Part shown: positions 5,596 to 21,848 of the stretch, piece by piece
Position numbering within the stretch: position 1 is the first letter of the stretch
Layout of the letters: every line of letters starts with the position of its first letter
From: a virus
Direction: 5' to 3' (one strand)
Length of the DNA stretch: 43,140 nt
IMG/VR virus record: IMGVR_UViG_3300002920_000041
Coordinates: 1-43,140 of that record
Program-made: the position numbers and the translations under genes
The notes under the pieces: model-generated
Told to the model about the DNA's origin: nothing
Databases searched by the model: none
The model's input: only the letters and a program-made list of their open reading frames with translations

Positions 5596-5659
5596 TTTTC
5601 AATTTCACTACAAAGCCGCCATAAATATATTTAAAGCGATTTTGTAGTGAAATTGAAAA
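5596..5659. promoter_or_regulatory. 64-bp near-perfect palindrome, copy 1 of 2, in the divergent control region between the leftward and rightward operons
   Basis: Arms TTTTCAATTTCACTACAAA (5596-5614) and TTTGTAGTGAAATTGAAAA (5641-5659) are perfect reverse complements. The AT-rich centre (ataaatatattta) is also self-complementary. The 23-mer ATTTTCAATTTCACTACAAAGCC is identical at 21668-21690. Confidence 0.85.
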
Positions 5660-5782
5660 CGCTGATTTCCCCTTTGCCCATCGCTATCTATGGCATGTCA
5701 GCCGCTTTAGCCGCGCTTCAATCTTCTGTTCAGCGTGATAAGTTGTGGATAGGAAAAGCGAGTGTGATTTGAGTGTTCAGCT

Positions 5783-6524: not shown

Positions 6525-6558
6525 ATTTCCGATGTCACGGTCAAAGCACAGCGCCTAT

Positions 6559-6587
6559 TTTATGGTTTAGAACGTGAGCAGCATAAT
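6559..6587 (+). promoter_or_regulatory. Weak candidate sigma-70-type promoter
   Basis: TTTATG, a 17-nt spacer, then CATAAT, located 22 nt upstream of the 6610 start. Confidence 0.25.
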
Positions 6588-6609
6588 CCTATAGGGGGAT
6601 AAGCGAACC

Positions 6610-7425
6610 ATGTACATGGAATTGTATCACTCAAGCAAGACCATTCAGGTCGTGGATGCAAACGGCGAAATCATTGATATTCCAGCACCGCAACCACAGG
6701 TCTTAGGGCTACCCATTTTGCGTGTCAAGGAAAACTATTTGGTCATCGACGTGGCTTTCCTCAATGAGGACGGGGTTTTCCGCGAAGAGTTCAAGCTGAC
6801 GCGGAAACACACCTTGAACAGCGGCAAGGTGGTCGAAGAGCCTATCACTGAATTGGTCGCGTTTCCTATCGCGTCTGAAGGGTTTGAACGCCGCGTCCTG
6901 TTCCGAAAGCCGTATGAGGCGGGAAACAAACCTATTTGCCGCTCTGAAGACGGCGGTTACCCATTGCAGGAGTTTGCAGGGACTCTGAACGCCGCGATGG
7001 AATATGTCGATGAAGGAGGTGTCAACGTCACATGCGCTACATGCCCGTTTTCGAGGTGGAAACGCATTGATGGGCGTAACGTTCGCGACTGCGACCAGCA
7101 AATCCAAATCCCTGTCGCTGCCATGATTGATGATAAGATTTTTCCAGTTGCGGTTCGCTTTCGCAGCAGCGCTTACCGTCATGGCAAGCGGATTGTAGAG
7201 CGGATCGCTTATCTGAAAAGCCAGAACGTACCCCCTTACAACGCGGGCGTGGTGTTGACCGTTATGTCTGTCAGCCAGATGCTCGATAAGCCGGGGTTGG
7301 CAGGGTATGTTTTAGCGGTCAAGAGCATCGAGAGCAGCCTGTTTGTGAACCTTAGCGACGGTCAGAAAAGCCGCGTGATTGACCTCTACAACAGCCACAA
7401 CATCGAGACCAACGAAGTCTACTGA
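6610..7425 (+). CDS. Hypothetical Cys-rich protein (271 aa) at the head of the replication module
   Basis: A G-rich SD precedes the ATG. Cysteines are spaced as C(RSEDGG)...CATCPFSRW...C, suggesting a metal site. The function is not recognised. Confidence 0.75.
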   Translation: MYMELYHSSKTIQVVDANGEIIDIPAPQPQVLGLPILRVKENYLVIDVAFLNEDGVFREEFKLTRKHTLNSGKVVEEPITELVAFPIASEGFERRVLFRKPYEAGNKPICRSEDGGYPLQEFAGTLNAAMEYVDEGGVNVTCATCPFSRWKRIDGRNVRDCDQQIQIPVAAMIDDKIFPVAVRFRSSAYRHGKRIVERIAYLKSQNVPPYNAGVVLTVMSVSQMLDKPGLAGYVLAVKSIESSLFVNLSDGQKSRVIDLYNSHNIETNEVY

Positions 7426-7487
7426 TCCCCGATATCAGCAGCGGGGCGGGGTCACCTGCCCCGCATCTCATATCTGAGGAGGACGCT

Positions 7488-10400
7488 TTGGATAGGCTTT
7501 TCAAAGACAAGCCTTACCTCGATGAGGCGCGGCTTTTCCTTCAGGCTGTATGGGCGGCTTTTCCGCCTGAATCCATTCTCGGTCTTACTTACGACGTTCT
7601 TTACAATTCAAAAGGCGATTTGCGTAAGGGCGAGCGTCCTGTATGGTTAACGCGCGCGGGCTTAGCCGAATTTTTCGAGGAGGGGTTGCCTTCCTTACAG
7701 ACGCGCAATGAGTCTCAAGATGAATCAGGCAACATTTACTTCAGACCAGCGGCGCGTAAGCGCGTCATCATAGACTCAGTCAATGCGAATCGTTATCGGA
7801 CGGGGACATTAGACGAGCTTACGGTAGTCAATTCTATTTGGTGTGACATAGATTGTGTTGCGCGCGGGATAGACTACGACCGCGCTTTTGGCGTTTTGCG
7901 TGACATGCAAGCGTCAATCATTTGGTTTACAGGCGGCGGCTTGCAAGCGATTTGGCTGACTGACAAGCTGATCGACGTAAGCTCTTCTGATTTGGCGCGC
8001 GAATTCAAAGCGAGAGCCTTAGCTTTCCTGCTACCGCGTTTCAAAGCTGAAGGAATTGAGGTTGACACTAGCGTGCATGACGCGACGCGAATGCTGCGCT
8101 TAGTAGGCTTCAGAAATAAGAAACCCAGCCGCAAGGGCGCTTTCGCTACTATCCTTCATTTCGAACCCGATCGTCGTCTCGCCTATGCCGACTTCATGCG
8201 CATTGAATTGCCTAAGCCTGCTCAACCGATTGGTGGCAATGGCGGCAGGGATGATTACGTTACATTTGTAAACAATCCTGTAAACGACGGTAAACAAAGT
8301 GACGCGCTGTATTTTGTGAGCGGTGAATTTGTTGCTCGCTTAATCAAGCGTGAGCAGCCTGTTGAGCGGCATCCCGCCCTTGTGAAGGTCGCGGCGAGCG
8401 CGGCTAAGGCTGGAATACCTATGGCGGCGCTCATCCAACATTTGCGCCCGCTCGCCGTTGAATGGTTCGGTAAGACGGGCGAACAGCGCCGCGCCTTTGG
8501 CGAGCTGGACTCGCTAGTCGCTTGGGCTTACCAAAACGTTGAGCATGGCGTTAGCAGCGACCGCTATGCCGTCCGCCTGACTGAAAACGGTTTTGAGCTT
8601 GTCGATGACGCCGTAAGGCGTTACAGAAAGCCTATTGACATTGACTCCTTAAGACTAGATTCAGGTCAAGCTCATGCGATTGTAGAGAGAGAAGATCCTG
8701 AGCAGGCGGAAGAGGATTTAATCCCGTTGCGTCAAATCCGAGCCGAATTGCCGTCGGTGATCGGAAATTTCATTGACGCGACTCGGCGGCGCGGCGAAAT
8801 CGGGCGGACGATGCTAATCAAAGCTCCGCTCGGCAGCGGCAAGACGCATTCGGTGTGGGTCGAACTTCACAAGCGTGCGCTTGCCGATGACAAGTTCAAA
8901 GCGGTCTTTTACGGGCTGTTCACCTACACAAAAGAGCAATGGCGCGCTTATTTGGCGGATTTTGGTCTGCAGCCCGATGACGTTTTCTATTTTGAGGCTA
9001 GAAACGGTCGAAAGGGCAGTATAGGCTATTGCGCATTTCACGAGGAGGCTGAACAGGTCGCCAATAAAGGCTATCGCGTCTTCGATACGCTTTGTATGCG
9101 CTGCCCTCACTTATCTGAATGTCAACATAATTGGTACTTATCACAGAAAGAAGCCGCCGAAAATGCGCAGCTCGTCTATGCGCGCCACAACCACGCGCTC
9201 ATGCTGTTTGAGTTGAGCGACGGCAGAGATGTGGTTGTGATTGACGAGTCCATTGTGGATTTGATTGAAGCTCCTATACGGCTGGGCTTTGACGATTTCG
9301 CCGACGCAAACAATCACTTTCTGAGGGTGAACAGTCCTGACGCCTATCAAGCGTGCGATTCGCTATTGAGGGCTTTGCGGGCGGTTTTGGCGGCGACACC
9401 GTCAAAATCGACAAAGTACCTCGACTATGAGAAGCATGTCCGCGACGGGCGATGGGTCGTTGAGCAGCTCTTGAATTACATTGAAGGCGAGGACATGGCG
9501 GAAAAGCAAGCCGTGTTGGAATTGGCGTTAGAGCAATCAGATGATTTCTTTGATGAGTTGCATCCAATCATCAATTCGCAAAACAACACGGCTATTATCG
9601 ACGTGGACAACCTGCCGCGCCGCTATTTGAGTACTTTCATTCGCCTGTTGAGGAGCGAATACGGGCTTTGGAAAGCAGGGCATAAGGATTGGAATTCGCG
9701 CCTATTTGCTTTCAACAATCGCTTTCAGGTTTACCCTTTGCCTAGCATAGGCGTCGATAGGACAACTAAAGCTATCATCATCGACGGGACGGGCGATCCA
9801 AAGGTATACGATGGGCATATCAGGACTAAAGACGGCAAGAAATTAGAGCGCCGCGAAATGCGCGTTTACGCGCCTGCTGCCCCGCAGGTTGCCAAAGTCG
9901 TGCAATTCGCGGACGCATCGTTTTCTAAGTCCTCTTTAGCCCAAAACTTCACAAAGGCTGAAGAGACGGGCGAATCGGATAAAAGCTTGATAAGGCTAAT
10001 CCCTGAGGCGATGAAGCAAGGGCTTAAGGGACGCGGCGATATCATGACCTCAAAGGTCTTGATTGTTTGCTATAAGCCTATTAAAGCGCAGGTCAGAAAA
10101 CTCATCGACGCTGACCCAGTCCTGAAGGCGCTCAGCCGTAAAGGCGCGCTCGTGGTTGAGCATTTTGGCAATTTGAGAGGACGAAATGACTACGCGGATT
10201 TCGATTGCGCCTTGATAGTTGGGACGCCGCGCATCCCTGAGGCTGAACTCATCATGCGCGCTAAAGCACGTTTTCATGAAGACCCGAATCTGATCGGAGT
10301 CCAGCGGGTCACGCGCGCAAGAGCCTATAAAGGGACGCGGAAAGCGAGCCTGTTATTCGATTACGCTGACGATAGGCTCTCCGAAATCAATTACAAGCTG

Positions 10401-10937
10401 ATTGATGATGAGATAAGGCAATGCGCGGAGCGCATCAGACCGAATGTCCCTGATTTGCTCAAGAAGCGCGGCAAACTCATTTTGCTTTTGACCAATTTTC
10501 CAACTTCATACCGTGTCAACGAGCTGCACCTGCTGACTGACGTGCTGTTTGAGGAAAAGGTTGATGAGCATCTATCGCTGCTACCAAGACCTTTGGTTGA
10601 GTACAGCGGTGAAGAGCTAATCAAACTGTTGCAAGAGGCGGGTCTGCAGAATCGCGAGGCGATTCGCAAGGTGCTGCAGGAGCGAGGCTTGACAAGACGG
10701 CGACCGCGTTACAAAACCCGCAACAGCAATCACCGGGAACTCGCCAAAACGCTCATCGAATCCGTGATGCGGCGTGAAATGGACGAGGCTGCGGCAAGCG
10801 GAAAGCCTTACGAGGGGCGCTCGATTTCGGGATGGATGCATTTTTGCGCTCAACAAATTGAAGGATTCAGCTTGACATGGCACTCGACTTCTGCTATACT
10901 GAAGGAAATCACGATCAACACTTCAAAACGAGGATAA
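7488..10937 (+). CDS. Primase-polymerase (AEP-like) fused to a P-loop helicase or NTPase (1149 aa)
   Basis: TTG start lies 5 nt after GAGGAGG. The N-terminal part has WCDIDC (DxD) and HDATRMLRLVGFRNKK (primase-type R..G..N.K). The central part has Walker A KAPLGSGKTHS and Walker B VVVIDES. Confidence 0.7.
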   Translation: MDRLFKDKPYLDEARLFLQAVWAAFPPESILGLTYDVLYNSKGDLRKGERPVWLTRAGLAEFFEEGLPSLQTRNESQDESGNIYFRPAARKRVIIDSVNANRYRTGTLDELTVVNSIWCDIDCVARGIDYDRAFGVLRDMQASIIWFTGGGLQAIWLTDKLIDVSSSDLAREFKARALAFLLPRFKAEGIEVDTSVHDATRMLRLVGFRNKKPSRKGAFATILHFEPDRRLAYADFMRIELPKPAQPIGGNGGRDDYVTFVNNPVNDGKQSDALYFVSGEFVARLIKREQPVERHPALVKVAASAAKAGIPMAALIQHLRPLAVEWFGKTGEQRRAFGELDSLVAWAYQNVEHGVSSDRYAVRLTENGFELVDDAVRRYRKPIDIDSLRLDSGQAHAIVEREDPEQAEEDLIPLRQIRAELPSVIGNFIDATRRRGEIGRTMLIKAPLGSGKTHSVWVELHKRALADDKFKAVFYGLFTYTKEQWRAYLADFGLQPDDVFYFEARNGRKGSIGYCAFHEEAEQVANKGYRVFDTLCMRCPHLSECQHNWYLSQKEAAENAQLVYARHNHALMLFELSDGRDVVVIDESIVDLIEAPIRLGFDDFADANNHFLRVNSPDAYQACDSLLRALRAVLAATPSKSTKYLDYEKHVRDGRWVVEQLLNYIEGEDMAEKQAVLELALEQSDDFFDELHPIINSQNNTAIIDVDNLPRRYLSTFIRLLRSEYGLWKAGHKDWNSRLFAFNNRFQVYPLPSIGVDRTTKAIIIDGTGDPKVYDGHIRTKDGKKLERREMRVYAPAAPQVAKVVQFADASFSKSSLAQNFTKAEETGESDKSLIRLIPEAMKQGLKGRGDIMTSKVLIVCYKPIKAQVRKLIDADPVLKALSRKGALVVEHFGNLRGRNDYADFDCALIVGTPRIPEAELIMRAKARFHEDPNLIGVQRVTRARAYKGTRKASLLFDYADDRLSEINYKLIDDEIRQCAERIRPNVPDLLKKRGKLILLLTNFPTSYRVNELHLLTDVLFEEKVDEHLSLLPRPLVEYSGEELIKLLQEAGLQNREAIRKVLQERGLTRRRPRYKTRNSNHRELAKTLIESVMRREMDEAAASGKPYEGRSISGWMHFCAQQIEGFSLTWHSTSAILKEITINTSKRG
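10872..10900 (+). promoter_or_regulatory. Near-consensus sigma-70-type promoter with extended -10, internal to the end of the primase gene
   Basis: TTGACA (10872-10877), a 17-nt spacer, then TGcTATACT (-10 at 10895-10900), located 45 nt upstream of the helicase ATG. The -10 block TGCTATACT is the same as at 25740-25748. Confidence 0.55.
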
Positions 10938-10945
10938 ACACGAAC

Positions 10946-12793
10946 ATGTACAACTTGAGAGATTATCAGCAAGAAGCGGTGCAAGCAGTTTTAGATGATT
11001 GGGGGCGCCTTGAGCGCCCGATCATATTTATGGCTACGGGTTCAGGAAAGACCGTCGTCATGGCGGATATAGTCAGGCGTGTCCTAGCCGAACAGCCGAT
11101 GGCGCGTTTTCTTGTGATTTCTCACACCCGTGAGATAGTCACACAGACTGTAAAGGCTTTCGAACGCCATGTTGGCATTGAGATCAGCGTCGAGATGGGT
11201 GATTCCGTTGCGTCGCCTGACTCGAAAGTAGTGGTGGCAACTAGGCAGAGTTTATTCGGGTCTCGTCTCGACAGGATTGCTAAAGTTGGTTTTACCCACC
11301 TTCTGATTGACGAGGCGCATCACGTAGCGCCAGACAATCAGTACTGGAAAATTTACAATAGTCTTCGTGAAGCTAACCCGACCCTCAAGGTGGCAGGCTT
11401 TACAGCCACCCCTCAAAGGGCTGACAGGTTAGGGTTGGCTATCTTTACCAAAATCGGGTTTAGATGGTCGATTATATCGGGCATTGAGGAAGGTTTTTTA
11501 GTACCCCCTGCCCGATATCAAGTCGAAGCCGAAGGCGTAACCCTTGCCAATTTGCGGGTCAAGCAAGGCGACTACGATCTAGTAGGTTTGAATAAAACCC
11601 TCAAGGCGGCTGATTGGCCGTCGGTCGCCCTCGCCGCTTGGGAGCGGTTCGCTGAAGGGCGCAAGACTGTAGCTTTCTTTTCATCGATTGAGCTCTCTAA
11701 GGCGTTCGTTAAGATCGCCAAAGAGAGAGGGATTGCGGCGGCGCATGTGGACGGCGAAATGCCTTTTTCAACCAGAGAATTTATCTTAGCCCGCTTCATG
11801 CGGGGCGAGATTAAAATTGTGTCGAACGTGGCTGTGCTAACGGAAGGCTTTGATGAGCCCACCATCGAAGCCATTCTGTGGGCAAGGCCCACCATGAGTG
11901 AGGTTCTTCTCACTCAAGCTGTAGGGCGTGGCTTAAGACCCGCTCAAGGTAAGCAGAACTGCCTAATTTTGGATCTGACTCCCGCCGACACCCGTCTTTT
12001 GACGACGGGGACTCTGTTGGGTTTGACTTCTCGTTGCCCCTCCTGCGGCGTTACTTTTCTGAAAGGTTTCGAAAAGTGCCCACGATGCGGCGCGCAAATT
12101 TACACAGGTTCGGTTCAGCGCTCAAAGCCTGCAGCCGATGTCCCCGATTCGGGTGAAAAGAGTAAAGCGCTGTCGGGCTTTAAGAAAGATGTGGAAGGTA
12201 TCGAGGTAAGGGCGCGCCCAAAGGCAGTATTTGAGGGCGACACCGAAATCCCAGAAATCCACTCGTTTTACAAATTCGAGAGGATTGATACTTACTTCGA
12301 CACGAACATCAAAGGCCACGCTGTCGCCTGCAAAGGAGAGTGGGTCTTCATTTTAGACCCGATCGAGCTTTGGGATTCCGCGCTGCTTGAGCGCGCAAAG
12401 GCTAGTTTGGATGAGACTGACCCTCTAGCTAAAAAGGCGGCGGAGCGGATTGTCAGCCTTAGCGGCGGTCACAGCATTGCGGTCTTCCGTTACACGGAGG
12501 AGACTGCAGACTTAATCTTTATCGACAAGTACCCATTTTTGGAGCAGGCTTTAGACGCTTATCGAAAACCATCCCTGCTCGCTGGACGGCAAGCAAGACA
12601 GACCCGCTGGTGGAATGATCCCGCAACCCCCAAGCAGCACGCATACTTGCGGTCGCTGCAAAAACAGTACGACGTTACTCTGAAGACACAACTGCGATAC
12701 AAAGGCGAGGTCTCTGAAGCCTTAAACCTAGTCAAGGCTTTTGGATACTTGCGAAACACCCTTATGATTCTTGCTAGGAGGATACCGCAATGA
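10946..12793 (+). CDS. SF2 DEAH-box DNA helicase with a Cys4 zinc ribbon and a C-terminal extension
   Basis: Motif I MATGSGKT, II LLIDEAHH, III GFTATP, VI QAVGRGLR, plus CPSCG...CPRCG. The ATG at 10946 is preferred over 10877 because it lies after the primase stop and GAGGA sits 11 nt upstream. Confidence 0.85.
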   Translation: MYNLRDYQQEAVQAVLDDWGRLERPIIFMATGSGKTVVMADIVRRVLAEQPMARFLVISHTREIVTQTVKAFERHVGIEISVEMGDSVASPDSKVVVATRQSLFGSRLDRIAKVGFTHLLIDEAHHVAPDNQYWKIYNSLREANPTLKVAGFTATPQRADRLGLAIFTKIGFRWSIISGIEEGFLVPPARYQVEAEGVTLANLRVKQGDYDLVGLNKTLKAADWPSVALAAWERFAEGRKTVAFFSSIELSKAFVKIAKERGIAAAHVDGEMPFSTREFILARFMRGEIKIVSNVAVLTEGFDEPTIEAILWARPTMSEVLLTQAVGRGLRPAQGKQNCLILDLTPADTRLLTTGTLLGLTSRCPSCGVTFLKGFEKCPRCGAQIYTGSVQRSKPAADVPDSGEKSKALSGFKKDVEGIEVRARPKAVFEGDTEIPEIHSFYKFERIDTYFDTNIKGHAVACKGEWVFILDPIELWDSALLERAKASLDETDPLAKKAAERIVSLSGGHSIAVFRYTEETADLIFIDKYPFLEQALDAYRKPSLLAGRQARQTRWWNDPATPKQHAYLRSLQKQYDVTLKTQLRYKGEVSEALNLVKAFGYLRNTLMILARRIPQ

Positions 12794-15090
12794 GTTGGGC
12801 AGTCGATATCGAGACAACAGGACTCGGCGCGGGCGATGAGATATTGACAATCGCCCTGCTGCGAGAAGGGAACAGCTTTGTGATTAACGCGCCGTTTAGC
12901 GACGGCGCGTTTGATTCGGTGACGGATATTTTCAAGTCGGACGGCGTGTTCATAGCGCACAACGCCGTGTTTGATTTCGGTAGATTAGCGCGAATCGGGC
13001 TGCCTATACCTAAAAAGATATGGTGCACGCTGCAGATGGCTCGGTTATTGCACCCTGATAAAACGAAGACGTACTCATTGTTTGGCGTCGCCGAGTCGCT
13101 TGGAATCCCGATTAGCGATGAGCATCGCAGAATGAAGGCGCGAAACCGATCGGAAATCAGGCAATCGCGTGGGATGGATGCTCTTCAGGCTTCATTGTTC
13201 GACGGCGATCCTTACCTTGCGCGCTATGCGCTCTTCGACGCTGAACTTGCGCTAAAAATCTATCAAGCGCAGCAGGCGTTTGTCACAGACACCAACAAAG
13301 AGCTGGTCGACTTTGAGATGCGAGCCGTGCGCACCTATGCGCGGCTCACGGCGCGCGGCGTATGCATAGATGAGGCTTACGCTGATGAGCTGCTCTCGAA
13401 AACCCGTGAGGAGCTGAAAAGCGTGTTGGCAGAACTTGAGCGCGACGGGCTTAGCTCGCCTAATAAGCGATCGGCTGTGATGGATTACATTGCCAGAAAA
13501 GGGTGCAAGTTGCCTGAATACAACCCGTCAAGTCTGGTATTCACGGCGAAAGCCCATCAGGAATTGAAGCCTTTGTTTGATAGGGGAAAACCAATAACCG
13601 TCACTTTAGAGCACTTGTCTTTTGGCGCTGAAGCGATTGAGGAGCTGACGCGCGAAATCCCTGAGTTGTCTTTGCTGAAGCGATACAACGAGCTGCGCTT
13701 CTATGAAGGGCAGCTTGAGAACCTGCTTGAGTCAGCGTGCGATGGGCGGTTACATCCGCTTTACAACTTTACCCTGACAGGGCGTCGGGCGACTGAGCAT
13801 CCTCAGTTGCAGAACCTGAACATGGATTACATGAAGGGAGTCCTGATCGGGTCACCAGACGGAGACGCGACATTGCTTGAGTTTGACTTGAGCAATGCCG
13901 AAAACTGGATGGGGGCCATGATGAGCGCGGACTCGCTTTTCGCAGCCGCTTGTGCAAGTGGCGATTTTCATAGCTCTATGGCGAAAGTTTATTTCCCTGA
14001 GGATTTCGCCAAAGCGGAGCAGGCGGGCGATCGCGCAAAAATGAAGGAACTTCGCCAAAAGGGCAAAGGCATCACTTTTGGAATGGCATATGGCATGGGC
14101 GCTCAGACAATGGCAACGCGCCTGAAGATGCCGCTTGAGAGCGCAAAGAAAATCCTAGAGCAGGTCGCAAACAGCTTTCCTGCGCTAACCGCTGCTAAGC
14201 GGGCGGCGAAGGAGGCTTATGAGCAGCGCGGCTATGCGGTGCTTTGGAGCGGGCGCAAAGTCGCAGGCGGAGCGGCTAAGGACGCTTGGAATTACATATG
14301 CCAAGGTGGCGTAGCCGAAATCACTAAGCGGGCTGCCGTCTTGATTGATGAATTCCTGACAGAAAACGGCTTCAAATCTTACCTAGCCCTTGATATCCAT
14401 GACGCCTTGATCGTCGTTGTCTACCATGATGAGGCGTCGGCTATTGTCGAGCGCATCTCAGAGATAATAGAGGGGGTCGTCCCTCAATGGTGGAATCAAC
14501 GAACGAACCCAAACGCGCGATGGATAGCGCGCCCCGACTTTGATAAGAACGCTGAGAAGTGGGGGTATCGGCAGCTCGACATCCGTTTGGCTTTGCAAGG
14601 GAGTCGCAACGCCAAAGCGGAGTCAGAGCCTGAGAAAGGTGGTCTTGTGCAGGTTGACCTTGACAGGTTTCTTGACACACCTGTGCAGCGAGAGGTCGAG
14701 CTAGGCTATCCAATGTTCAATATCCTCTCAAGACCAATCAGGACTTTGCGCGATAGCGTTGAGCTTTTCAAAGAGCTGGATGCGGCAATCGAGGGTATGA
14801 AGGACGATCTTATAGCCCTGCCAATTCCAAATTCAAGCGAATGGCGCGATTTCAAGCGCGATCAAGCGCGCGTTTTGGCGGAGGCGTGGGTCGCCAATTA
14901 CGCGCATTTCAGAAACCCTGAAATGCCAATCGAATTCTTCAAAGCCGTCATCAAGCGGCTGGACGATCAAGAGCGCGTCGCCAAAGTTCGCAGCCGAAAA
15001 CGCGCTGAATACGAGGTCAAGGCTGCTAAGTATAAGCCAGAAGTCGCCGAAATTGTCAGGGTAAGCGGGGTAGAACCAAATGCCGATTGA
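12790..15090 (+). CDS. Family-A DNA polymerase with 3'-5' proofreading exonuclease domain
   Basis: Exo I VDIETTGL, Exo II AHNAVFDF, Exo III YALFDAELALKIY. Pol motif A FDLSNAENW, motif B RQKGKGITFGMAYGMG, motif C LDIHDAL. AGGAGG SD and an ATGA start/stop overlap are present. Confidence 0.9.
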   Translation: MSWAVDIETTGLGAGDEILTIALLREGNSFVINAPFSDGAFDSVTDIFKSDGVFIAHNAVFDFGRLARIGLPIPKKIWCTLQMARLLHPDKTKTYSLFGVAESLGIPISDEHRRMKARNRSEIRQSRGMDALQASLFDGDPYLARYALFDAELALKIYQAQQAFVTDTNKELVDFEMRAVRTYARLTARGVCIDEAYADELLSKTREELKSVLAELERDGLSSPNKRSAVMDYIARKGCKLPEYNPSSLVFTAKAHQELKPLFDRGKPITVTLEHLSFGAEAIEELTREIPELSLLKRYNELRFYEGQLENLLESACDGRLHPLYNFTLTGRRATEHPQLQNLNMDYMKGVLIGSPDGDATLLEFDLSNAENWMGAMMSADSLFAAACASGDFHSSMAKVYFPEDFAKAEQAGDRAKMKELRQKGKGITFGMAYGMGAQTMATRLKMPLESAKKILEQVANSFPALTAAKRAAKEAYEQRGYAVLWSGRKVAGGAAKDAWNYICQGGVAEITKRAAVLIDEFLTENGFKSYLALDIHDALIVVVYHDEASAIVERISEIIEGVVPQWWNQRTNPNARWIARPDFDKNAEKWGYRQLDIRLALQGSRNAKAESEPEKGGLVQVDLDRFLDTPVQREVELGYPMFNILSRPIRTLRDSVELFKELDAAIEGMKDDLIALPIPNSSEWRDFKRDQARVLAEAWVANYAHFRNPEMPIEFFKAVIKRLDDQERVAKVRSRKRAEYEVKAAKYKPEVAEIVRVSGVEPNAD

Positions 15091-16150
15091 TTTCTATAAT
15101 GAGGACGTTATGGACTTCATGAAGCGGGCGGGGGCGGCGTATCACGCCGCCCTGTTCGATCCGCCTTACGGATTGAACATGAAGGATTGGGATCGCGATC
15201 TCGCGCTTCAACCCGACTTTTGGCAGGCTTTGAAGGGCGTATTGTTGGAAGGGGCTATCGTCCTCGCCTTTTCATCGCCCCGCCTATACCACAGGATGGC
15301 GTCAGCGGCGGAAACGGCGGGTTTTGAGATATTGAACATGCTCGCGTGGATAACTGCTCAAGGTCTGAACAAAGGGCGGATGTTTGGCGATTACGCGATT
15401 GGCGCTCAGTCATTCCGATCAGCATTAGAGCCGATCCTAATAGCGCGCAAAAAGGCTAAAAACTACAGCAAAGCCGCCCACCAAACAGGCGCGGGTTTTT
15501 TGAACGTAAGAGGAGTCGGCGCGCGTCCGAGCCGCGATCTGTATCGTCCAGAGAGGATAGTCAAAACGGCTGTATACCGTGATTTCATAAATAGTAAGCG
15601 GTATACCTTGTCCCGCGACCAAAGGCGCATTACAGCCAATTTGGTTGTCATGCACAGCGAGGACTGCAATGAAGCGCGCTGCGCACCTGATTGCCCTGAC
15701 CTTGCCCTGCGTAAACTGTCAGGTCACCCCTCTGAACGTTATTTTCAAGCGTTGTTCAGAAAAGCTGAAAAGCTAGAGCGAGCTGCGTTGCCTGCACTAT
15801 ACGTGCCAAAGGCGCTGAGCATCGAACGTGATTTGGGCGTCAAAACACCATCGAGCAACCGCAATAGCCGAATTCCGAACCGCCTAAACCAGCATCCAAC
15901 AATCAAGCCTTTGGCGCTCTGCTATTACTTGGGCAAGCTTATATGCCCCCCGCCACAATACCATGCAACACATAACCCGCGTCTGTTTGTCCCTTTCTCA
16001 GGGACGGGTTCAGAGGTCATTGGCGCTGCGCTCGCGGGGTGGCAATCCATCGACGCCGTCGAGATTGATTCAAGCTATGTCACGATCGCCAAAGAACGCC
16101 TATCTTTTTGGTTAGGGATGCCCGTGCAATTGGAGCTTTTCTACGAATGA
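15080..16150 (+). CDS. DNA methyltransferase, beta-class N6A/N4C family (motif IV precedes motif I)
   Basis: FDPPYGL lies near the N-terminus, with HPTIKPLAL and FVPFSGTGSE (FxGxG) near the C-terminus. Target specificity cannot be read from the sequence. Confidence 0.8.
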   Translation: MPIDFYNEDVMDFMKRAGAAYHAALFDPPYGLNMKDWDRDLALQPDFWQALKGVLLEGAIVLAFSSPRLYHRMASAAETAGFEILNMLAWITAQGLNKGRMFGDYAIGAQSFRSALEPILIARKKAKNYSKAAHQTGAGFLNVRGVGARPSRDLYRPERIVKTAVYRDFINSKRYTLSRDQRRITANLVVMHSEDCNEARCAPDCPDLALRKLSGHPSERYFQALFRKAEKLERAALPALYVPKALSIERDLGVKTPSSNRNSRIPNRLNQHPTIKPLALCYYLGKLICPPPQYHATHNPRLFVPFSGTGSEVIGAALAGWQSIDAVEIDSSYVTIAKERLSFWLGMPVQLELFYE

Positions 16151-17028
16151 CCGACAAGCCTAGCTCATCTAACACGACGCTAGTGACGCCGCCCCCGCTC
16201 ACGCGCTCTCAATGGCTCGATTGTGAGGAAAAGGCGCGGAGCGCTGTCATCGCGTCAATCCCTAAGCCTGAAAAGGCGCAATTCGAGGTTGAGAATTTCG
16301 CAGCCTACCCTCGATGGTTGACCGCTGCCCTGACGATCGGGTTGCTCATCGTTGCAGGAGGCGCTTTGTATGTGAGCGCAGGAAAGCAGCTTGCGGCGGG
16401 CGATATTGTCCTGAAATCCGTGTTGACACACACGGATCGCGTCAATGAGTTTTGGGTGTCCACAGGGCTTATCGTCCTCGTTGTCATGGGCGAGATTGGC
16501 GCGCTGACTTTTGGGCTTAGCGCAGGGCTGTTAGCGCGGAATAAGACGGCTAAGCGCGTATTCCGCGCTTTCATGGTGATGAGCGCGGCGATCGCCTTGC
16601 TTGCCAACATATCCATGACGGCTTCATATCCGCAAGAGAGCGTGATCGTTTTCCAATGGTTCATCACGATCCTAGCTCCCTCTCTTGTGTTAGGAGTCGG
16701 ATTTGTCTTTGAAAATATGCTCTTGCAAGAGCTTGAAAAGAGGGCGGCTCGCATCAAGGCTTTCAATGACGCCGTCCTGTTCTACCACGCCGTGTTGCGC
16801 GACCCTAAGACAGCGCTGCCGGAGCGTTTTCAGAACGAGCTAGTCCATGCCGTCGGCGAGGCGTTGCGCGACAATTGCAAGACGGCGGACGGCAAGCGCG
16901 GAGCGCTTTACAAGCGATACCTTGAGCAGATTGAGGCTGACCCGCGCTTTGAATACCAGTGCATAGCGGCGGAATTTGAGCGTCATACGGTATCGTTTAA
17001 GGATTTCATGCAGACGCGCCCTATGTGA
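16147..17028 (+). CDS. Polytopic membrane protein (293 aa, 4-5 TM segments)
   Basis: The ATGA overlap with the methyltransferase stop is preferred to the 16108 start. Hydrophobic helices include LTAALTIGLLIVAGGALYV, GLIVLVVMGEIGALTFGLSAGLLA, AFMVMSAAIALLANI and WFITILAPSLVLGVGFVF. Confidence 0.75.
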   Translation: MTDKPSSSNTTLVTPPPLTRSQWLDCEEKARSAVIASIPKPEKAQFEVENFAAYPRWLTAALTIGLLIVAGGALYVSAGKQLAAGDIVLKSVLTHTDRVNEFWVSTGLIVLVVMGEIGALTFGLSAGLLARNKTAKRVFRAFMVMSAAIALLANISMTASYPQESVIVFQWFITILAPSLVLGVGFVFENMLLQELEKRAARIKAFNDAVLFYHAVLRDPKTALPERFQNELVHAVGEALRDNCKTADGKRGALYKRYLEQIEADPRFEYQCIAAEFERHTVSFKDFMQTRPM

Positions 17029-17621
17029 CGCCGAGCGGGCGCGACGCTAGGCTCGGCGATGCGGTCAGTAAAGCGGTATTGCAGACGGTCGTCACGGCTA
17101 TTGAGAAGGTCTTGATGGGTATCGGGGATGGGTTGTGCGATGAAATTTCAAAAGCTGCGCATGAAATTTCAACAGCTCAAGATGAAATTTCACAGCAGGG
17201 CAATGAAATTTCAAATCGGGGTGATGAAATTTCAAGTCGAGGGAATGAAATTTCAAGGGACAGGACTGAAATTTCAAGCCATGAAAATGAAATTTCAAGG
17301 GGCGGCGTTGAAATTTCATCGGGCGGCGATAGCAGGCGGCGTGAAGGCTGCCGAGACAGTGAGACGGGTCGATTGGCAGGACTTGAAATTTCAAGTGAAA
17401 TTTCATCCGCTGAAATTGAAATTTCAAGAGGCGATGAAATTTCAAGTGAAATTTCATCCGAAATCGCAAGGCATCCTAAGCCGCTCAACGCCAAAGCGGT
17501 CGCGGATATCCTGCGCAACAATCCCGATTTGCTCCACATGCGCGGCAAGGATTTGGCGGCAGTGTTTGGCGTCACGCCTGTCGTTATCACAAGGGCGAGA
17601 AAGTTAGTAGCTCATGGCTAA
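17025..17621 (+). CDS. EIS-repeat protein with a C-terminal helix-turn-helix-like segment. The gene carries the TGAAATTTCA iteron array.
   Basis: A GTG start overlaps the upstream stop (ATGTGA), and the stop overlaps the next ATG by 8 nt, so it is translationally coupled in the operon. It has 14 x-E-I-S units. The C-terminus reads GKDLAAVFGVTPVVITRARKLV. Confidence 0.65.
   Translation: MTPSGRDARLGDAVSKAVLQTVVTAIEKVLMGIGDGLCDEISKAAHEISTAQDEISQQGNEISNRGDEISSRGNEISRDRTEISSHENEISRGGVEISSGGDSRRREGCRDSETGRLAGLEISSEISSAEIEISRGDEISSEISSEIARHPKPLNAKAVADILRNNPDLLHMRGKDLAAVFGVTPVVITRARKLVAHG
17141..17318. repeat. Iteron array A: nine exact copies of the palindromic TGAAATTTCA at exact 21-bp spacing
   Basis: Copies start at 17141, 17162, 17183, 17204, 17225, 17246, 17267, 17288 and 17309. 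The 11-bp spacers are variable. Confidence 0.95.
17384..17460. repeat. Iteron array B: five more exact TGAAATTTCA copies, one TGAAATTGAAA variant and a 26-nt internal direct repeat
   Basis: Copies start at 17384, 17396, 17417, 17435 and 17447 (spacings 12, 21, 18, 12). TGAAATTTCAAGTGAAATTTCATCCG occurs at 17384-17409 and at 17435-17460. TGAAATTGAAA at 17411-17421 equals the arm of the 64-bp palindromes. Confidence 0.95.
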
Positions 17622-18306
17622 GCGACTGTTCGAAAGCCCTTCGCTTTTCCAAGAATTCATGGACAAGCCCTTCAATAGAGGCGAACAGCCGCTTTCCTTC
17701 TATCTTGAGCGGTTTAAGGCGCTCGTCAAAAGCATCGCCAATCAATACCTTGATTTGGCGGAAAAGGCGGCTTACAGCTTTGAGGACTTGGCGCAAATCG
17801 GCTACGAGGCGCTGCAAAGGGCTTATGGGCGGTTCGACCCCGATCGGAAACGGCGCAACAGGTCGAGCGGCTCAATCGGGCATTTCTTCTCATACGCAAA
17901 GCAGGCGATCACACGGTCAATCGAGCGTGAGGTGTTCGCCGCTGTCGGCTTGCCTAGCAATTACCGCGCGCGCCGCGAGCCTGACATCGCTCCGATCGTC
18001 CAACTAAGCCTTGAAGGGCTTGTCGAGGAGGGCATTACGCCTTATCAGTTAATTGACAACTCATCACTAGAGGAGGAAATAATTAAACAGGAAACAAATC
18101 AAGAGCAGCTGGAAATTATCCTTGAAAGTCTATACACTCTTAACAGCGCTGAGCGATTCATAGTTGAAAGAATGCTGAGCGGGGTATCGCTTGAGGATAT
18201 CGAGAGCGATTTCCAAAGAGAGCATTCAGAGAGCGCAAAGATCGTGTTCAGACAAGCGGTATCGAAAATTCGTAGAGCAGTCAGAAAGCGGAGGAAAAAC
18301 CAATGA
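17614..18306 (+). CDS. Sigma-70-family RNA polymerase sigma factor (phage-encoded, copy 1)
   Basis: Region 2-like YEALQRAYGRFDPDRK...FFSYAKQAITRSIEREV. Region 4-like LNSAERFIVERMLSGVSLEDIESDF...FRQAVSKIRRAV. Confidence 0.7.
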   Translation: MAKRLFESPSLFQEFMDKPFNRGEQPLSFYLERFKALVKSIANQYLDLAEKAAYSFEDLAQIGYEALQRAYGRFDPDRKRRNRSSGSIGHFFSYAKQAITRSIEREVFAAVGLPSNYRARREPDIAPIVQLSLEGLVEEGITPYQLIDNSSLEEEIIKQETNQEQLEIILESLYTLNSAERFIVERMLSGVSLEDIESDFQREHSESAKIVFRQAVSKIRRAVRKRRKNQ

Positions 18307-19016
18307 TAGTCCCTAATGAGCGATTCAATGAGCGCTATAACCCGCGTGATAGTAAGTCAGAACCCATCGAAAAGCTAAAATTCAAATGCATAGGAGCAGC
18401 TTCTCTAAACTCACATGGTGACCAGTGGCTTTTCGAAGACCTTTTGCAGACCGCTTACGAAACGGTATTGGTCTGCGCTAATCGGTTCGATCCGAAAAGA
18501 GCGGGCGGCGATACCTATAGGCATTTCTACAGCTACGCATCGGTCGCAATAGACCGCAACGTCCGGGATGCGGCGGCGCAATTCAGCAGCAGCCCAAAGC
18601 CGATTGTCGAAAAATCAGCGGTCAAAGACTCCAAAAAGCCAAAGAAAACGCGCGGCAAGCGCGGCGTTGAGTTTGTGTCTGAGGATATCCTAGACCTTCA
18701 CCCTGACCCGCGCCCTGACCCTGAAGCCGCGCTCGAAATCAAGAGCCGCGAGGAGAAAATCAAGGCGCTAATCAAAATCGCGTTGGATGCTTTAGATGAG
18801 CGCCTGCGTTTTATCGTTGTAGCCCGTTTTGGGCTTGAGACAGGTGTTCCCATCGACGGCGCGGCTTTAGCGGCGCGCTATGAAGCTCGTTTTGGCGCAA
18901 AGCTCACTAAGTTGAATACGATGTACAAACAAGCTTTTCGCAAAATGCGGGCTGCATTGGAAAGGGCTGGCTATGCCACAAAGTCGGAGGAGATCGCCGA
19001 ACTATTCGGATTCTGA
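18303..19016 (+). CDS. Sigma-70-family RNA polymerase sigma factor (phage-encoded, copy 2)
   Basis: ATGA overlap with copy 1. Region 2-like YETVLVCANRFDPKRAGGDTYRHFYSYASVAIDRNVRDAA. Region 4-like LDERLRFIVVARFGLE...MYKQAFRKMRAAL. Confidence 0.7.
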   Translation: MIVPNERFNERYNPRDSKSEPIEKLKFKCIGAASLNSHGDQWLFEDLLQTAYETVLVCANRFDPKRAGGDTYRHFYSYASVAIDRNVRDAAAQFSSSPKPIVEKSAVKDSKKPKKTRGKRGVEFVSEDILDLHPDPRPDPEAALEIKSREEKIKALIKIALDALDERLRFIVVARFGLETGVPIDGAALAARYEARFGAKLTKLNTMYKQAFRKMRAALERAGYATKSEEIAELFGF

Positions 19017-19497
19017 ACCCGTCGAGATCGTTTTCGAAACTGAACTCGACGTAACTAAGAAATTGCCCGCCTACGTGAGCCTTGCCGACCGAGCCGTTGA
19101 TGACGAGACGGCTCGGCGGCTCGGCGTTTTTCTGGTCAAAGTCACAGAAGGGCTGCCGCTTTCAAACGCGGCGGCGGGGAGCGGGTTGCCCGCCAAATTC
19201 ATCAAAGGGCTGCTGAAGGAAAGCGCGCAATTCAATCAGTTGTATGAGCGCGCGGTAGCCATATTTGTTGAGAAGACGCTAACAGCGCTGAAAACAGACG
19301 GCAAGTCATGGCAACGCTTTGCTTGGATTCTTGAGCGCCGTTTCCCTGAAGAATTCGGCAATGGCGCGCTGTTGCGGATATCTGATGAGGATCAGGCGCT
19401 GCTCAGAAAGCTCGGCATGACGCCGCAAAGCGCATGGCGCGCGCTGATGAGCGCCCTTGAGCGCAAAATGGTAGAGCAGGATGGGCAAGACAGCTAA
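18973..19497 (+). CDS. Putative terminase small subunit (assigned by position)
   Basis: It lies immediately upstream of, and overlaps, the large terminase gene. It has an HTH-like segment LPLSNAAAGSGLPAKFIKGLL. The start is uncertain because the ATG at 18973 overlaps the sigma gene by 44 nt. Confidence 0.45.
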   Translation: MPQSRRRSPNYSDSEPVEIVFETELDVTKKLPAYVSLADRAVDDETARRLGVFLVKVTEGLPLSNAAAGSGLPAKFIKGLLKESAQFNQLYERAVAIFVEKTLTALKTDGKSWQRFAWILERRFPEEFGNGALLRISDEDQALLRKLGMTPQSAWRALMSALERKMVEQDGQDS

Positions 19498-20815
19498 TCC
19501 AAAGCGGGCGCCAAAACGGCAAAAGCAAACAAAAGCCGACAAAGGTCAGGATTTGCTGAACGCTGCCATTGACGAGCTGACGCCCGTCATGGCGAGCCGC
19601 GTCACGCCCGTCACTTTCAAATTCAACATGACCCCTATGCAGCGCCTCATCTACGACAGCAAGGCGCGGTTTAGAGTCGTCGCTTGCGGGCGGCGTGCTG
19701 GTAAAACCTATCTAGGGGCAATCATTGCTATCGAGACAGCCCTGAGAGGCAAGGACGTTTGGTGGATCGCCCCTACTTATGAGATTGGCTTGATAGGATT
19801 GCACACCATCAAGCGCTTAGCCGCGCCTGTCGGTTTCACTGAGAATCGCACACGCCGCCTAATCCAATTCGGCAAGGGCTTCATACAAGTGAAAAGCGCT
19901 GACAAGCCTGACAATCTGAGAGGAGCAGGGCTTGATTTGGCGATTTTCGATGAGGCTGCCCTCATGCCGCCCGAAATATGGAATGAAATCTTGCGCCCGA
20001 CTCTCATCGACAGGCAAGGGCAGGCGCTTTTCCTAAGCACGCCCAAAGGCTTGAATTGGTTTCATGAGATTTTCAGGAAAGGCTTAGAAGGCGAGCCTGA
20101 ATGGGCTTCATTCAACTTTCCAACAGCTGCTAATACATTCCTGCCTAAGATTGAGTCCGAGATTGAAGCCGCTAGGGCGGCGATGCCTGATGTTCTCTTC
20201 AAACAGGAAATTTTGGCGGAGTTCATAGACGACGTCGGCGGCGTGTTCAGCGCCGTGCTGGACAACGCGACCTTGTCAACCGAGCCGCCAATCAGCGGAG
20301 CGCTATACAGCGTCGGAATCGACCTCGCGCGGCTCAACGATTACACGGTCGTGTCTATTTTGCGGACGGATGTTTCGCCCGCTCGTCAGGTCTTCATCGA
20401 CCGCTTCCACCAGATGGCGTGGCAAGACCAAATCGTGCGAATCGCTAAGACGATCAGCCGCTATAAGCCGCAAACTGTAAGAGTCGACCAAACAGGCGTC
20501 GGCGACGCCGTCTTGCAATTCGCCCGCTCGCAATGGGCAGCGCAAGGCGCGTCTGTGATTGGCGTGACCCTGACCAATGAGGTCAAGGCGTCAATCATAC
20601 AAAATTTGGCGCTCGCCCTTGAGAAGGGAAACTTGCTTCTGCTTGATGACCCTGTTCAGAAGATTGAGTTGGTGTCATTTGAGATGGAACGGCTCAGCAG
20701 CGGCAGGTTCAGATATGGTGCGCCGTCAAATAAGCATGACGATACCGTCATCGCCCTCGCCTTAGCCGCACAATCCGTCACGTCGCCAAACGATGTATGG
20801 TGCGCCGTTTGGTAA
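19481..20815 (+). CDS. terL: Terminase large subunit
   Basis: Walker A VACGRRAGKTY, Walker B DLAIFDEAA, coupling LSTPKG. Nuclease acidic motifs GIDLARLNDYTVV, VDQTGVGDAV and KHDDTVIALALA. Confidence 0.85.
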   Translation: MGKTANPKRAPKRQKQTKADKGQDLLNAAIDELTPVMASRVTPVTFKFNMTPMQRLIYDSKARFRVVACGRRAGKTYLGAIIAIETALRGKDVWWIAPTYEIGLIGLHTIKRLAAPVGFTENRTRRLIQFGKGFIQVKSADKPDNLRGAGLDLAIFDEAALMPPEIWNEILRPTLIDRQGQALFLSTPKGLNWFHEIFRKGLEGEPEWASFNFPTAANTFLPKIESEIEAARAAMPDVLFKQEILAEFIDDVGGVFSAVLDNATLSTEPPISGALYSVGIDLARLNDYTVVSILRTDVSPARQVFIDRFHQMAWQDQIVRIAKTISRYKPQTVRVDQTGVGDAVLQFARSQWAAQGASVIGVTLTNEVKASIIQNLALALEKGNLLLLDDPVQKIELVSFEMERLSSGRFRYGAPSNKHDDTVIALALAAQSVTSPNDVWCAVW

Positions 20816-21200: not shown

Positions 21201-21667
21201 AATTGCTGCCTCCTATATCCAAAATTAGGCTAACGCTGCCAATCGAGACATTTTCTCCAAAAACCCGATTTTTGAGCCTTTCTGAAAGTTTTAAAGCTCA
21301 ATGTGTAATCTATAGGGGCGGGTCGTTTCATAGGGTCTGCAGCCCGATTTTTTAGGCTATCGAATACGCAACGCGACAAAACAGCAGTTTAGAAAAAAAG
21401 AGACCGATTCCCTAGCCCCCGCTTTACACTTCAATCTTGGTTCAGCACACCAGAGCTAAAACAGCCCGTGACAAGCGAGGGAAGCCGTTTTGAATCGCGG
21501 CAAGCGTTTAGAGGCTCAAATTTAAGCGGCTATTCTTCAGGCGTGGCAGAGCAGGCGGCTCTTAGGTAAGGTTCACGCTAAGTGACCCTGACCGCGTTAG
21601 AGTGAATATACAACTTAGCAGGTTTTTGAAGGTCGCAAAAGATGCCGACCAGCAGTGGGTAGCGGCG

Positions 21668-21733
21668 ATTTTCAATTTCACTACAAAGCCATCAGATAAT
21701 ATTTAATGATGACTTTGTAGTGAAATTGAAAAT
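21668..21733. promoter_or_regulatory. 64-66-bp near-perfect palindrome, copy 2 of 2, upstream of the structural operon
   Basis: Arms TTTTCAATTTCACTACAAAG (21669-21688) and CTTTGTAGTGAAATTGAAAA (21713-21732). The inner CATCA/TGATG and AAT/ATT pairs differ from copy 1 but remain self-complementary. Confidence 0.85.
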
Positions 21734-21848
21734 GGATCGGCTGATGCCCTCCTCGCTTGGAAATTGATTGTCAGGCGGCTTTGCTCAAGCCGCTCCAAAG
21801 CGCGCTATATGCCTTGCTCTGCTAAGTTGGCAGCAGAGGAGTCAGCTT

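Follow-up and report, generated by a model that had tools for sequence, protein, structure and literature searches.

Binding-site arrays overprinted on the genes of DNA-binding proteins are an established concept, exemplified by the lambda O gene with its replication origin (ori), by SPP1 gene 38 with oriL, and by packaging (pac) sites located within small-terminase (terS) genes. The iterons of lambda are about 19 bp long, and the pac site of P1 is made up of TGATCA hexamers in groups of four and three. Short repeated sites are also found in plasmid centromeres: R1 parC has ten 11-bp iterons in two sets of five, and F sopC has twelve 43-bp repeats with an inverted-repeat core. The lambdoid origin is embedded midway along gene O, and its iterons, which are bent, number four in lambda and six in the Stx phages, a difference that adds 13 residues to O (PMC7466680). 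In SPP1, oriL combines direct repeats with an AT-rich unwinding element within gene 38, which encodes the protein that binds it, and at pacL–pacC–pacR clusters of repeat motifs flank the region that is cut, again in coding sequence and with bent DNA (PMC6316719). Here we describe an array of identical 10-bp palindromes written in frame into a single gene of the virus record IMGVR_UViG_3300002920_000041 (IMG/VR), of which we analysed positions 1 to 43,140 (43,140 bp; hereafter, the window). By analogy, the array appears to belong with the overprinted systems named above. What distinguishes it is the combination of a short, perfectly palindromic and invariant site, many copies, two blocks separated by a gap of fixed length, and an orphan protein from an uncharacterised phage clade, a small family of uncultivated phages of ~43 kb.

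The palindrome, TGAAATTTCA (hereafter, the word), occurs 14 times in exact form in the window, every copy lying within the open reading frame (ORF) at 17025–17621 (Table 1), whereas 100 dinucleotide-preserving shuffles gave a mean of 0.05 copies and a maximum of 1. There is no exact copy elsewhere in the window, and the only copies with a single mismatch (GGAAATTTCA, at 8763 and 42218) are at chance level. The first 77 bases of the window (1–77) are repeated exactly at 43064–43140, which implies a circularly closed assembly and a complete genome of ~43.06 kb; the array is the sole locus in it that carries the word. From start to start, the copies are spaced by 21 bp eight times and then by 75, 12, 21, 18 and 12 bp. 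All of these distances are divisible by 3, and each copy is read xxT-GAA-ATT-TCA in the ORF, encoding Glu-Ile-Ser (E-I-S). We refer to the nine regularly spaced copies as block A and to the remaining five as block B. A preliminary description of this stretch, made from its letters, had listed the 14 starts, the nine copies at 21 bp, the common reading frame, the coupling of the gene to both neighbours and a GC-rich gap of 65 bp, and every one of these coordinates proved exact. A literature search for the 10-mer returned primer-type matches only.

The preliminary description also took the 21-bp spacing to place all of the copies so spaced on one face of the DNA. This holds for block A but not for the whole array: the block B words lie 0–103 degrees off the block A face at 10.5 bp per turn, and for the window their helical phase has a P of ~0.02 relative to in-frame random placement, a result that is sensitive to the helical repeat assumed. 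Moreover, a period of 21 bp corresponds both to two turns of DNA and to one protein heptad, and by itself is therefore no evidence for helical phasing. Tracts of the A3T3 type are intrinsically bent, and block A, with nine such tracts phased at every second turn, is probably a curved segment. Block B is among the least stable duplexes of the genome, at the 99.7th percentile of the least stable 80-bp windows, and melts more readily than any other stretch near the array.

For comparison with relatives, we searched 5.8 billion proteins with the product of the ORF, which yielded four clusters of homologues (P0002–P0005; 153–187 residues), and we collected the DNA of the homologue loci together with further loci from IMG/VR and JGI metagenomes. 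With the window, these represent seven lineages, the other six being L001, L002, L132, L003, L129 (the same as L008, with L141 belonging to the same lineage) and L004. More distant relatives were sought by protein-guided scans of IMG/VR and JGI metagenomes, which returned the same lineages only. With the array and its surroundings (10 kb) as the query, a near-identity search of 50,697 phage records gave no match at the DNA level, and tblastn of the array protein against phages and plasmids was likewise negative.

Across the seven lineages, all 68 words are identical. Information content is 2 bits at each of the ten word positions and no more than 0.74 bits at every flanking position, and E, I and S are always encoded by GAA, ATT and TCA. 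Under the phage's own codon usage (GAA for 40% of Glu, ATT for 40% of Ile and TCA for 19% of Ser), finding these codons in 14 of 14 copies in the window has a probability of ~1e-21. The codon before GAA ends in T for 11 different amino acids (D, H, N, T, V, L, S, I, F, A and R, encoded by GAT, CAT, AAT, ACT, GTT, CTT, AGT, ATT, TTT, GCT and CGT); for the 14 wobble positions in the window, the probability is ~1e-6.4. This T, at the end of a codon whose amino acid is variable, completes the palindrome and can be explained only by a requirement for the full palindrome. Selection at the codon level, for example for translational pausing, would leave it unexplained.

The sequence around the words behaves quite differently. 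The 11-bp spacers of block A share a mean identity of only 37%, in line with the earlier statement that they vary freely, and the array protein of the window is ~49% identical to that of L001; the corresponding values for its neighbours are 89% for the upstream membrane ORF, 76% and 71% for the two sigma-like proteins, 92% for TerS and 94% for TerL. In the conserved C-terminal domain of the array protein, 26–31% of the residues that are identical between the window and the other lineages are encoded by different codons, as expected for ordinary purifying selection on protein. The preliminary description had offered two explanations for the pattern, selection on the DNA word itself or very recent expansion. 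Our comparison bears out the former, since the relatives keep the entire 10-mer including the preceding wobble T rather than an E-I-S peptide with varying codons. It excludes the latter, given the divergence of the spacers and the persistence of the words in the face of so much codon drift nearby. Copies that have decayed do alter the protein (GAA-ATT-CCT encodes EIP and AAA-ATT-TCA encodes KIS).

The number of words varies among lineages (7, 8, 8, 9, 10, 12 and 14) and the architecture does not: the two blocks are conserved. In the relatives, block A has 5, 5, 5, 5, 7 and 7 copies, always on the 21-bp lattice (5–9 when the window is included), with a variant, GAAATTTCT, at one lattice position in L004. 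Block B consists of two to five words at spacings of 12–33 bp. The gap between them is 65 nt long in six of the seven lineages (75 bp from start to start) and 77 nt (87 bp) in L004, although its sequence in the window is only 43–51% identical to that in the relatives at the nucleotide level, with no bias in codon position. That the length is kept while the sequence is free implies some geometric constraint, on either the DNA or the protein linker. A degenerate copy that closes block B had been described as decayed and as showing what drift looks like. The copy is real, but lies at 17460–17468 rather than 17461–17469, and it does not reflect fresh decay: GAA-ATC-GCx (E-I-A) occupies this position in six of the seven lineages.

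These comparisons strongly support the view that the DNA word is itself under selection, over and above any selection on the peptide that it encodes. The array is very probably a cis-acting nucleic-acid element of some kind and, judging from the symmetry and invariance of its words, almost certainly an array of binding sites for a symmetric (dimeric), sequence-specific protein.

The ORF that carries the array overlaps both of its neighbours. Its GTG start at 17025 lies within ATGTGA, in which the upstream stop codon occupies 17026–17028, and its own stop codon (17619–17621) follows the next ATG, at 17614, giving an overlap of 8 nt; from these arrangements, we take the gene to be translationally coupled on both sides. 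AlphaFold, supplied with an alignment of six sequences, predicts a single long helix for residues 5–93 (predicted local distance difference test score, pLDDT, >90 for residues ~20–80), a disordered segment for residues 93–150 (pLDDT <50) and a compact helical bundle for residues 156–197 (pLDDT ~90), with a mean pLDDT of 72.6. The heptads encoded by block A place Ile once per heptad in the long helix, with no regular second hydrophobic position, and the gap and block B encode the disordered linker.

Conservation of the protein is highest in the C-terminal bundle, where 33 of 49 columns are invariant and mean column identity is 89%. It had been suggested that the gene ends in a helix-turn-helix (HTH)-like segment that could be the cognate binder. 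The predicted bundle is confident and its nearest folds are indeed HTH domains, but none of the matches is significant, and the proposal is plausible but weakly supported. In Foldseek, the closest neighbours were the HTH domains of KorB, CENP-B, SETMAR, VirB, FapR and sigma region 4 (SigR), at a non-significant E of ~1; a domain of only ~45 residues accounts for such values. Across PDB and BFVD, the Foldseek matches were generic HTH neighbours only, with E of ~0.24 or worse, and the best Pfam match was HTH_Crp_2 (E = 0.085). Neither the full protein nor its C-terminal domain had significant matches in Pfam, PHROGs, NCBIfam, PADLOC, PDB sequences or a profile comparison with PDB. An exhaustive HMMER search with the C-terminal 54 residues against 1.84 billion representatives recovered only the family itself and two spurious "KDLANFYGVTPP" repeat proteins. 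Using hhalign, no relationship was found between this domain and the two sigma-like proteins of the window; its "ITRARKLV" may resemble sigma region 4.2. We therefore regard the domain as an orphan that, on the basis of its predicted fold, is probably DNA-binding.

The genes on the minus strand from 16 to ~5444 are without known function. A plus-strand operon with short gaps only then extends from 5783 to 20815. It encodes a 1149-residue protein, an SF2 helicase, PolA, an N6/N4 methyltransferase, a hydrophobic protein of 306 residues and the array protein, followed by two sigma-like proteins and TerS-like and TerL proteins, after which come a portal protein and structural proteins. This agrees with the earlier placement of the array between the replication genes and the sigma genes. 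The 1149-residue protein combines motifs of archaeo-eukaryotic primase-polymerases (AEPs) with a helicase module that has weak DinG-type similarity. It matched no family at E ≤0.001 (Pfam, PHROGs) or 0.01 (NCBIfam), but from its motifs is probably a replicative primase-helicase analogous to P4 alpha or pRN1 ORF904. Between its gene and the ORF at 6610–7425 lies a GC-rich (65%) intergenic stretch, 7426–7487, with an inverted repeat (GCGGGGCGGGGTCACCTGCCCCGC) that may form a hairpin or act as an attenuator. The 306-residue ORF is 88–91% identical in the relatives, which makes it the most conserved gene of the neighbourhood and the anchor for synteny; it is conceivable that its product serves as a membrane anchor for a nucleoprotein complex. 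The first sigma-like gene matches Sigma70_r2 with 26.2 bits (cut-off 24) and PHROG 351 with E = 1.7e-11, and the second matches more weakly. The position of the pair, directly upstream of terS/terL, recalls that of the RinA/ArpU-type late activators of Gram-positive siphoviruses. The nearest relatives of TerL, at ~33% identity, come from the Thermus phages P23-45, P74-26, G20c and phiFa, a phage of Meiothermus, a virus of haloarchaea and a phage of Acidobacteriota. The window contains no tRNA genes.

Table 1. Positions of the array, its host gene and other features of the window (HTH, helix-turn-helix)
Feature	Position	Strand	Remarks
64-bp AT-rich near-perfect palindrome	5596–5659 and 21669–21732		arms ATTTTCAATTTCACTACAAAG
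Primase-helicase candidate	7488–10937		1149 residues; motifs IWCDIDC, TGGGLQAIW and RLVGFRN, then Walker A/B helicase module
PolA	12790–15090		
N6/N4 methyltransferase	15080–16150		
Upstream coupled ORF	16108–17028	+	306 residues; several hydrophobic helices; no family assignment
Array ORF	17025–17621	+	198 residues; GTG start; predicted N-terminal long helix, disordered linker and C-terminal HTH-like bundle
Block A	17141–17318		nine exact TGAAATTTCA at strict 21-bp spacing; encodes nine xEISxxx heptads of the predicted helix
Block A word starts	17141, 17162, 17183, 17204, 17225, 17246, 17267, 17288, 17309		
Gap between blocks	17319–17383		65 bp; 43/65 = 66% G+C
Block B	17384–17456		five exact words, starting at 17384, 17396, 17417, 17435 and 17447; spacing 12/21/18/12 bp
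Degenerate copy GAA-ATC-GCA (E-I-A)	17460–17468	+	conserved non-word closing block B
Coding region of C-terminal HTH-like domain (HPKPLNAKAVADILRNNPDLLHMRGKDLAAVFGVTPVVITRARKLVAHG)	17472–17618	+	candidate cognate binder
Two paralogous sigma-like genes	17614–18306 and 18303–19016	+	directly downstream of the array ORF, same operon
TerS-like	18973–19497	+	PHROG 4102, small terminase, E = 8e-7
TerL	19481–20815	+	Terminase_6N/6C; PHROG 2, E = 1e-45

Of all the functions that we considered, the one we favour, tentatively, is a replication origin located inside the gene of its own binder, in the style of lambda O and SPP1 gp38. In such a model, the sites would lie in frame in the middle of the gene, where the encoded helix and disordered segment are tolerant of change, and the protein that binds them would most likely be the gene's own product, acting through its nearly invariant C-terminal HTH-like domain. 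A complex of many protein copies nucleated on the array would then mark the phage replication origin, with block A (phased at 21 bp, containing A3T3 tracts and probably curved) as the assembly platform and the dense, easily melted block B as the site where the duplex opens for the primase-helicase, the helicase and PolA. We infer the binding of the word by a protein, the identity of that protein and the role in initiation alike. We count in favour of an origin the location of the array at the end of a replication module (AEP primase/helicase, SF2 helicase and PolA), the lambda and SPP1 precedents, which are better than those for the other readings, and the geometry of the array, with its conserved gap length, its unstable block B and the rough alignment of block B with the helical face of block A. 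In favour of self-binding, we count the 89% conservation of the C-terminal domain, which matches the invariance of the word.

Searches with neighbouring genes brought up a single more distant lineage, which also fits this picture. P0013 (loci L139/L140) is a homologue of the upstream membrane ORF with 49% identity, and the gene syntenic with ours carries, at 996–1244 of L139, in-frame repeats of a different kind: CTGATACA-N5-TGTATCAG, then GTATCAG three times at a 12-bp period, its reverse complement CTGATAC three times at a 9-bp period, and GCAAACGACGGTGCT twice. Within the CTGATAC set, wobble positions outside the word vary (ACA/ACG, CCT/CCG) while the word is kept. The comparison covers the part of the gene upstream of its C-terminal region, as the L139/L140 contigs end within the repeats; the contig of a sigma homologue, P0018, begins inside the sigma gene. 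From these repeats it is possible that each lineage has its own words, as would be expected of a site and binder that co-evolve as a module, and we count this for the origin as well.

The resemblance to the lambda origin is close in several respects: dyad-symmetric sites with A-tracts lie in frame in the middle of the gene for the binder (here, a candidate), and the number of sites differs among relatives in a way that alters the length of the protein, as each word in our array adds residues. There are also clear differences. Lambda has only 4–6 iterons, which are non-identical and are followed by a dedicated AT-rich tract, whereas here there are 7–14 identical 10-bp palindromes in two blocks with a fixed 65-bp gap. 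Lambda O is a member of a recognisable family and contacts its sites with its N-terminal domain, whereas our candidate domain is C-terminal and an orphan, and the origin is a putative one. SPP1, a lytic siphovirus of ~44 kb with pac packaging, is similar in pairing repeats with an easily melted element (PMC6316719). Unlike our locus, it has direct repeats, a distinct AT-rich unwinding element and a second origin, oriR; there is no sequence similarity between the two, and gp38 works with a DnaB-type helicase and a loader, both of which are absent here.

Several further observations weigh against an origin at this site. No homology to known initiators (lambda O, gp38, DnaA, Rep) was found in Pfam, PHROGs, NCBIfam, PDB or the 1.84 billion representatives. 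No separate AT-rich tract adjoins the array, the gap and flanks being GC-rich. Half-sites only ~5–6 bp apart are unusual for a classical HTH dimer and would better fit ribbon-helix-helix or bZIP-like proteins, or enzymes. P4 alpha recognises its origin alone, and the 1149-residue primase-helicase could do likewise. The 21-bp period may also reflect the protein heptad, and a pac site would account about as well for an array that is split into two blocks and placed upstream of terS/terL. Finally, the preliminary description had pointed to GC skew as a way of locating the origin, and the result is unfavourable: cumulative skew, which follows the direction of transcription throughout the genome, has no inflection at 17 kb and reaches its minimum at ~5.6 kb.

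That minimum coincides with the first copy of a 64-bp AT-rich palindrome (Table 1), one copy of which lies in each of the two divergent intergenic regions (5445–5782 and 21201–21767). The element is kept in relatives (L001 ~14552–14625, L141 ~6103–6176), with a compensatory change at its centre from CATCA...TGATG to CACCA...TGGTG, and a 7-nt stretch of the word (AATTTCA/TGAAATT) recurs within its arms in everted order. The palindrome is likely to be a bidirectional promoter/operator element, for which it is a better candidate than the array, and it is also an alternative candidate for the origin.

A pac signal, which was not among the origin, centromere-like and operator or titration readings offered in the preliminary description, is the next possibility, and although we consider it unlikely, it has a good deal to recommend it. 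Here, the word clusters would be bound by TerS, or by the product of the array gene as an accessory specificity factor, and TerL would cut in or near the 65-bp gap and package headfuls towards the late genes. The terS/terL genes follow the array after 1.35 kb, within one operon and in one orientation, and the terminase (of the Terminase_6 type) and a portal fused to a Mu-F-like domain are compatible with this mode. Two clusters of short repeats around a non-repeat centre recall P1 pac, and the DNA methyltransferase gene two genes upstream recalls, more speculatively, the control of P1 pac by methylation. The same two-cluster layout is found in SPP1 pacL/pacC/pacR (PMC6316719). The gap, too, is kept in length and free in sequence, although this freedom leaves no conserved sequence that could position a cut. 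The self-closing assembly is as expected of permuted genomes, but arises equally from genomes with terminal repeats or cos ends. The location is a point against it. Known pac sites lie inside or beside terS; those of SPP1 and P1 overlap terS/pacA and are bound by the small terminase. Our array ends at 17456 and is separated by two sigma-like genes from the TerS-like gene, which starts at 18973, and the array sits in the gene of a different putative DNA-binding protein. Compared with the SPP1 and P1 sites, the words are also longer, perfect and more numerous, and their number varies two-fold among relatives whose TerS proteins are 92% identical.

Rather less likely, in our view, is a regulatory array, that is, a roadblock, titration sink or autoregulatory site that would time late genes through genome copy number or the level of the binder. 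The gene's own product, a sigma-like protein or a host protein would occupy as many as 14 sites in front of the sigma-like genes. The array is directly upstream of these two genes and co-transcribed with them, the irregular spacing of block B suggests that the number of sites matters more than exact geometry, and the weak fold matches of the C-terminal domain include sigma region 4 and repressors. A simple sink, however, would need neither a conserved gap length nor a 21-bp lattice. A consensus scan found no promoter-like or terminator-like signal at the array, whereas the two divergent control regions carry another conserved element, the 64-bp palindrome, and the absence of the word from the rest of the genome would leave the putative regulator with no other target.

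A different lead, which we rate as improbable, came from bacterial genomes. A scan of 185,579 species, each represented by a single genome, for two words separated by 11 bp (word-N11-word) returned at least 120 loci. Among the matches listed, ~28 are from Pyrinomonadaceae, Chloracidobacterium, Blastocatellia and other Acidobacteriota, with 47–61% GC and a chance expectation of about zero. In these loci, the pair belongs to intergenic arrays of the form (T[CG]A[AG]AT[CT])4–6 that contain TGAAATTTCA at a 21-bp offset (among loci L009–L128, for example, L014 5076–5229, L066 61–91, L089 1206–1628 and L120 5844–5874). Nine more words occur in the 194 kb that these loci span, where 0.14 would be expected, and several of the elements are flanked by tRNA genes or follow immediately after a gene. 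These heptamer arrays look like an undescribed family of dispersed simple repeats. The word could thus mimic the core of (TSARATY)n intergenic heptamers of Blastocatellia-type Acidobacteriota and some other phyla, with 7–14 copies condensed into one gene that capture or titrate a host reader protein, for instance to bring it to the phage genome, for replication or compaction, or to remove it from the chromosome. The presence of thermophile phages and one Acidobacteriota phage among the TerL relatives would be compatible with such a host. Against this, no tRNA gene, shared DNA segment or spacer-like match ties the phage to the bacterial loci that we retrieved, the 11-bp spacer is heptamer-like in the host elements but free in the phage, and similar arrays in metagenome-assembled genomes of Planctomycetota, Verrucomicrobiota, Nitrospirota and Cyanobacteria point to a general class of simple repeats, for which our query pattern selected. 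Given those other phyla and the lack of a tie between phage and host, we treat this as a lead rather than as evidence. Other multi-copy matches to the pattern proved unrelated (Flavobacterium "DVKFHV" proteins, a non-coding 21-bp tandem repeat in L052, and loci L037, L005 and L006).

Structure in RNA or single-stranded DNA is, if anything, slightly more improbable than that lead. The words would pair in the mRNA or in single-stranded replication intermediates, building a stack of 10-bp helices, and control translation, stability or priming. They are perfectly self-complementary, and the 341-nt region folds at -129.5 kcal/mol compared with -85.3 +/- 4.7 for shuffled sequence (z = -9.5), but repeats of any palindrome give low energies automatically. 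Pairing alone would allow G-U-tolerant or compensatory variants, yet all the words are identical; a hairpin would not need each copy to be palindromic; and odd copy numbers (7 and 9) leave words unpaired. All three features argue for recognition of a duplex by a symmetric protein instead.

We regard a plasmid-type partition centromere, like parC or sopC and serving a phage that persists extrachromosomally, as very unlikely. As in R1 parC and F sopC, there are many identical short sites, here partly phased and, as in R1 parC, in two blocks, beside the gene for a small putative DNA-binding protein (those of the plasmids are bound cooperatively by a small dimeric protein), and the HTH domains of the ParB-family proteins KorB and VirB are among the top fold matches, none of them significant. 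The plasmid sites, however, are non-coding and adjoin genes for parM/parA-type nucleoside triphosphatases (NTPases), whereas our array lies inside an ORF of a lytic-type operon that runs from replication to packaging, and no ParA/ParM/TubZ NTPase, integrase, repressor or other lysogeny or maintenance function was detected among those ORFs that were scanned with Pfam, PHROGs, NCBIfam or PADLOC.

Least credible of all is that the array has no function in DNA and reflects coding constraints alone, as a peptide repeat, a recent tandem duplication or dual coding in the +1 or antisense frame. A peptide-only repeat is rejected because none of the 68 words varies, even at the wobble base of a variable residue, where frame 0 offers no protein-level explanation for the T, and the poor identity of the spacers implies that any duplications are old. 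A true coding tandem repeat recovered in the same scan, the GEISDMK repeat of L037 (Lachnospiraceae), makes the contrast plain: like ours, it has a 21-bp period, is in frame and encodes E-I-S, but there the entire 21-bp unit is copied and TCA/TCG synonyms occur, whereas in the phage the 10-bp palindrome alone is conserved and its surroundings drift. Dual coding could in principle freeze the word, as every frame-0 wobble position is the second codon position of the +1 frame, and the +1-frame ORF at 17128–17607, which reads [M/L/V]-K-F-[H/Q] at each word, is open for 159 residues in the window and is also open in L129 and L132. This frame is, however, interrupted in four of the seven lineages, between the blocks in L001, L002 and L003 and inside block A in L004, and the words that flank these stops on either side are perfect, so it cannot account for the invariance. 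The antisense frame at 17177–17590 is open for 137 residues in the window; as an explanation it is rejected by 1–5 stops in each of the seven lineages. Since a palindrome in frame makes the opposite strand read E-I-S too, both ORFs are by-products of the in-frame palindrome.

The array shows with unusual clarity how a DNA signal can be overprinted on coding sequence in nature: seven lineages separate the two layers base by base, with ten positions frozen and the rest free. It also serves as a caution for annotation, as the label "low-complexity EIS repeat protein" can mask the most strongly selected DNA element of a genome. The array provides an exact 10-bp probe together with a candidate binder for a phage clade that probably inhabits thermal environments, has hardly any genes of known function and lacks defined cis-acting sites. 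We know of no recognition sites for the terminases of P23-45, P74-26 and G20c. If the array were a pac site, it would be the first packaging signal for this terminase lineage, whose structures are well studied. If it is an origin, as we tentatively favour, it would represent an initiator/origin module of a new type that has no sequence relationship to lambda O, gp38 or Rep and operates alongside an AEP primase-helicase, and it could be of use as a portable replicon in hosts for which genetic manipulation is difficult.

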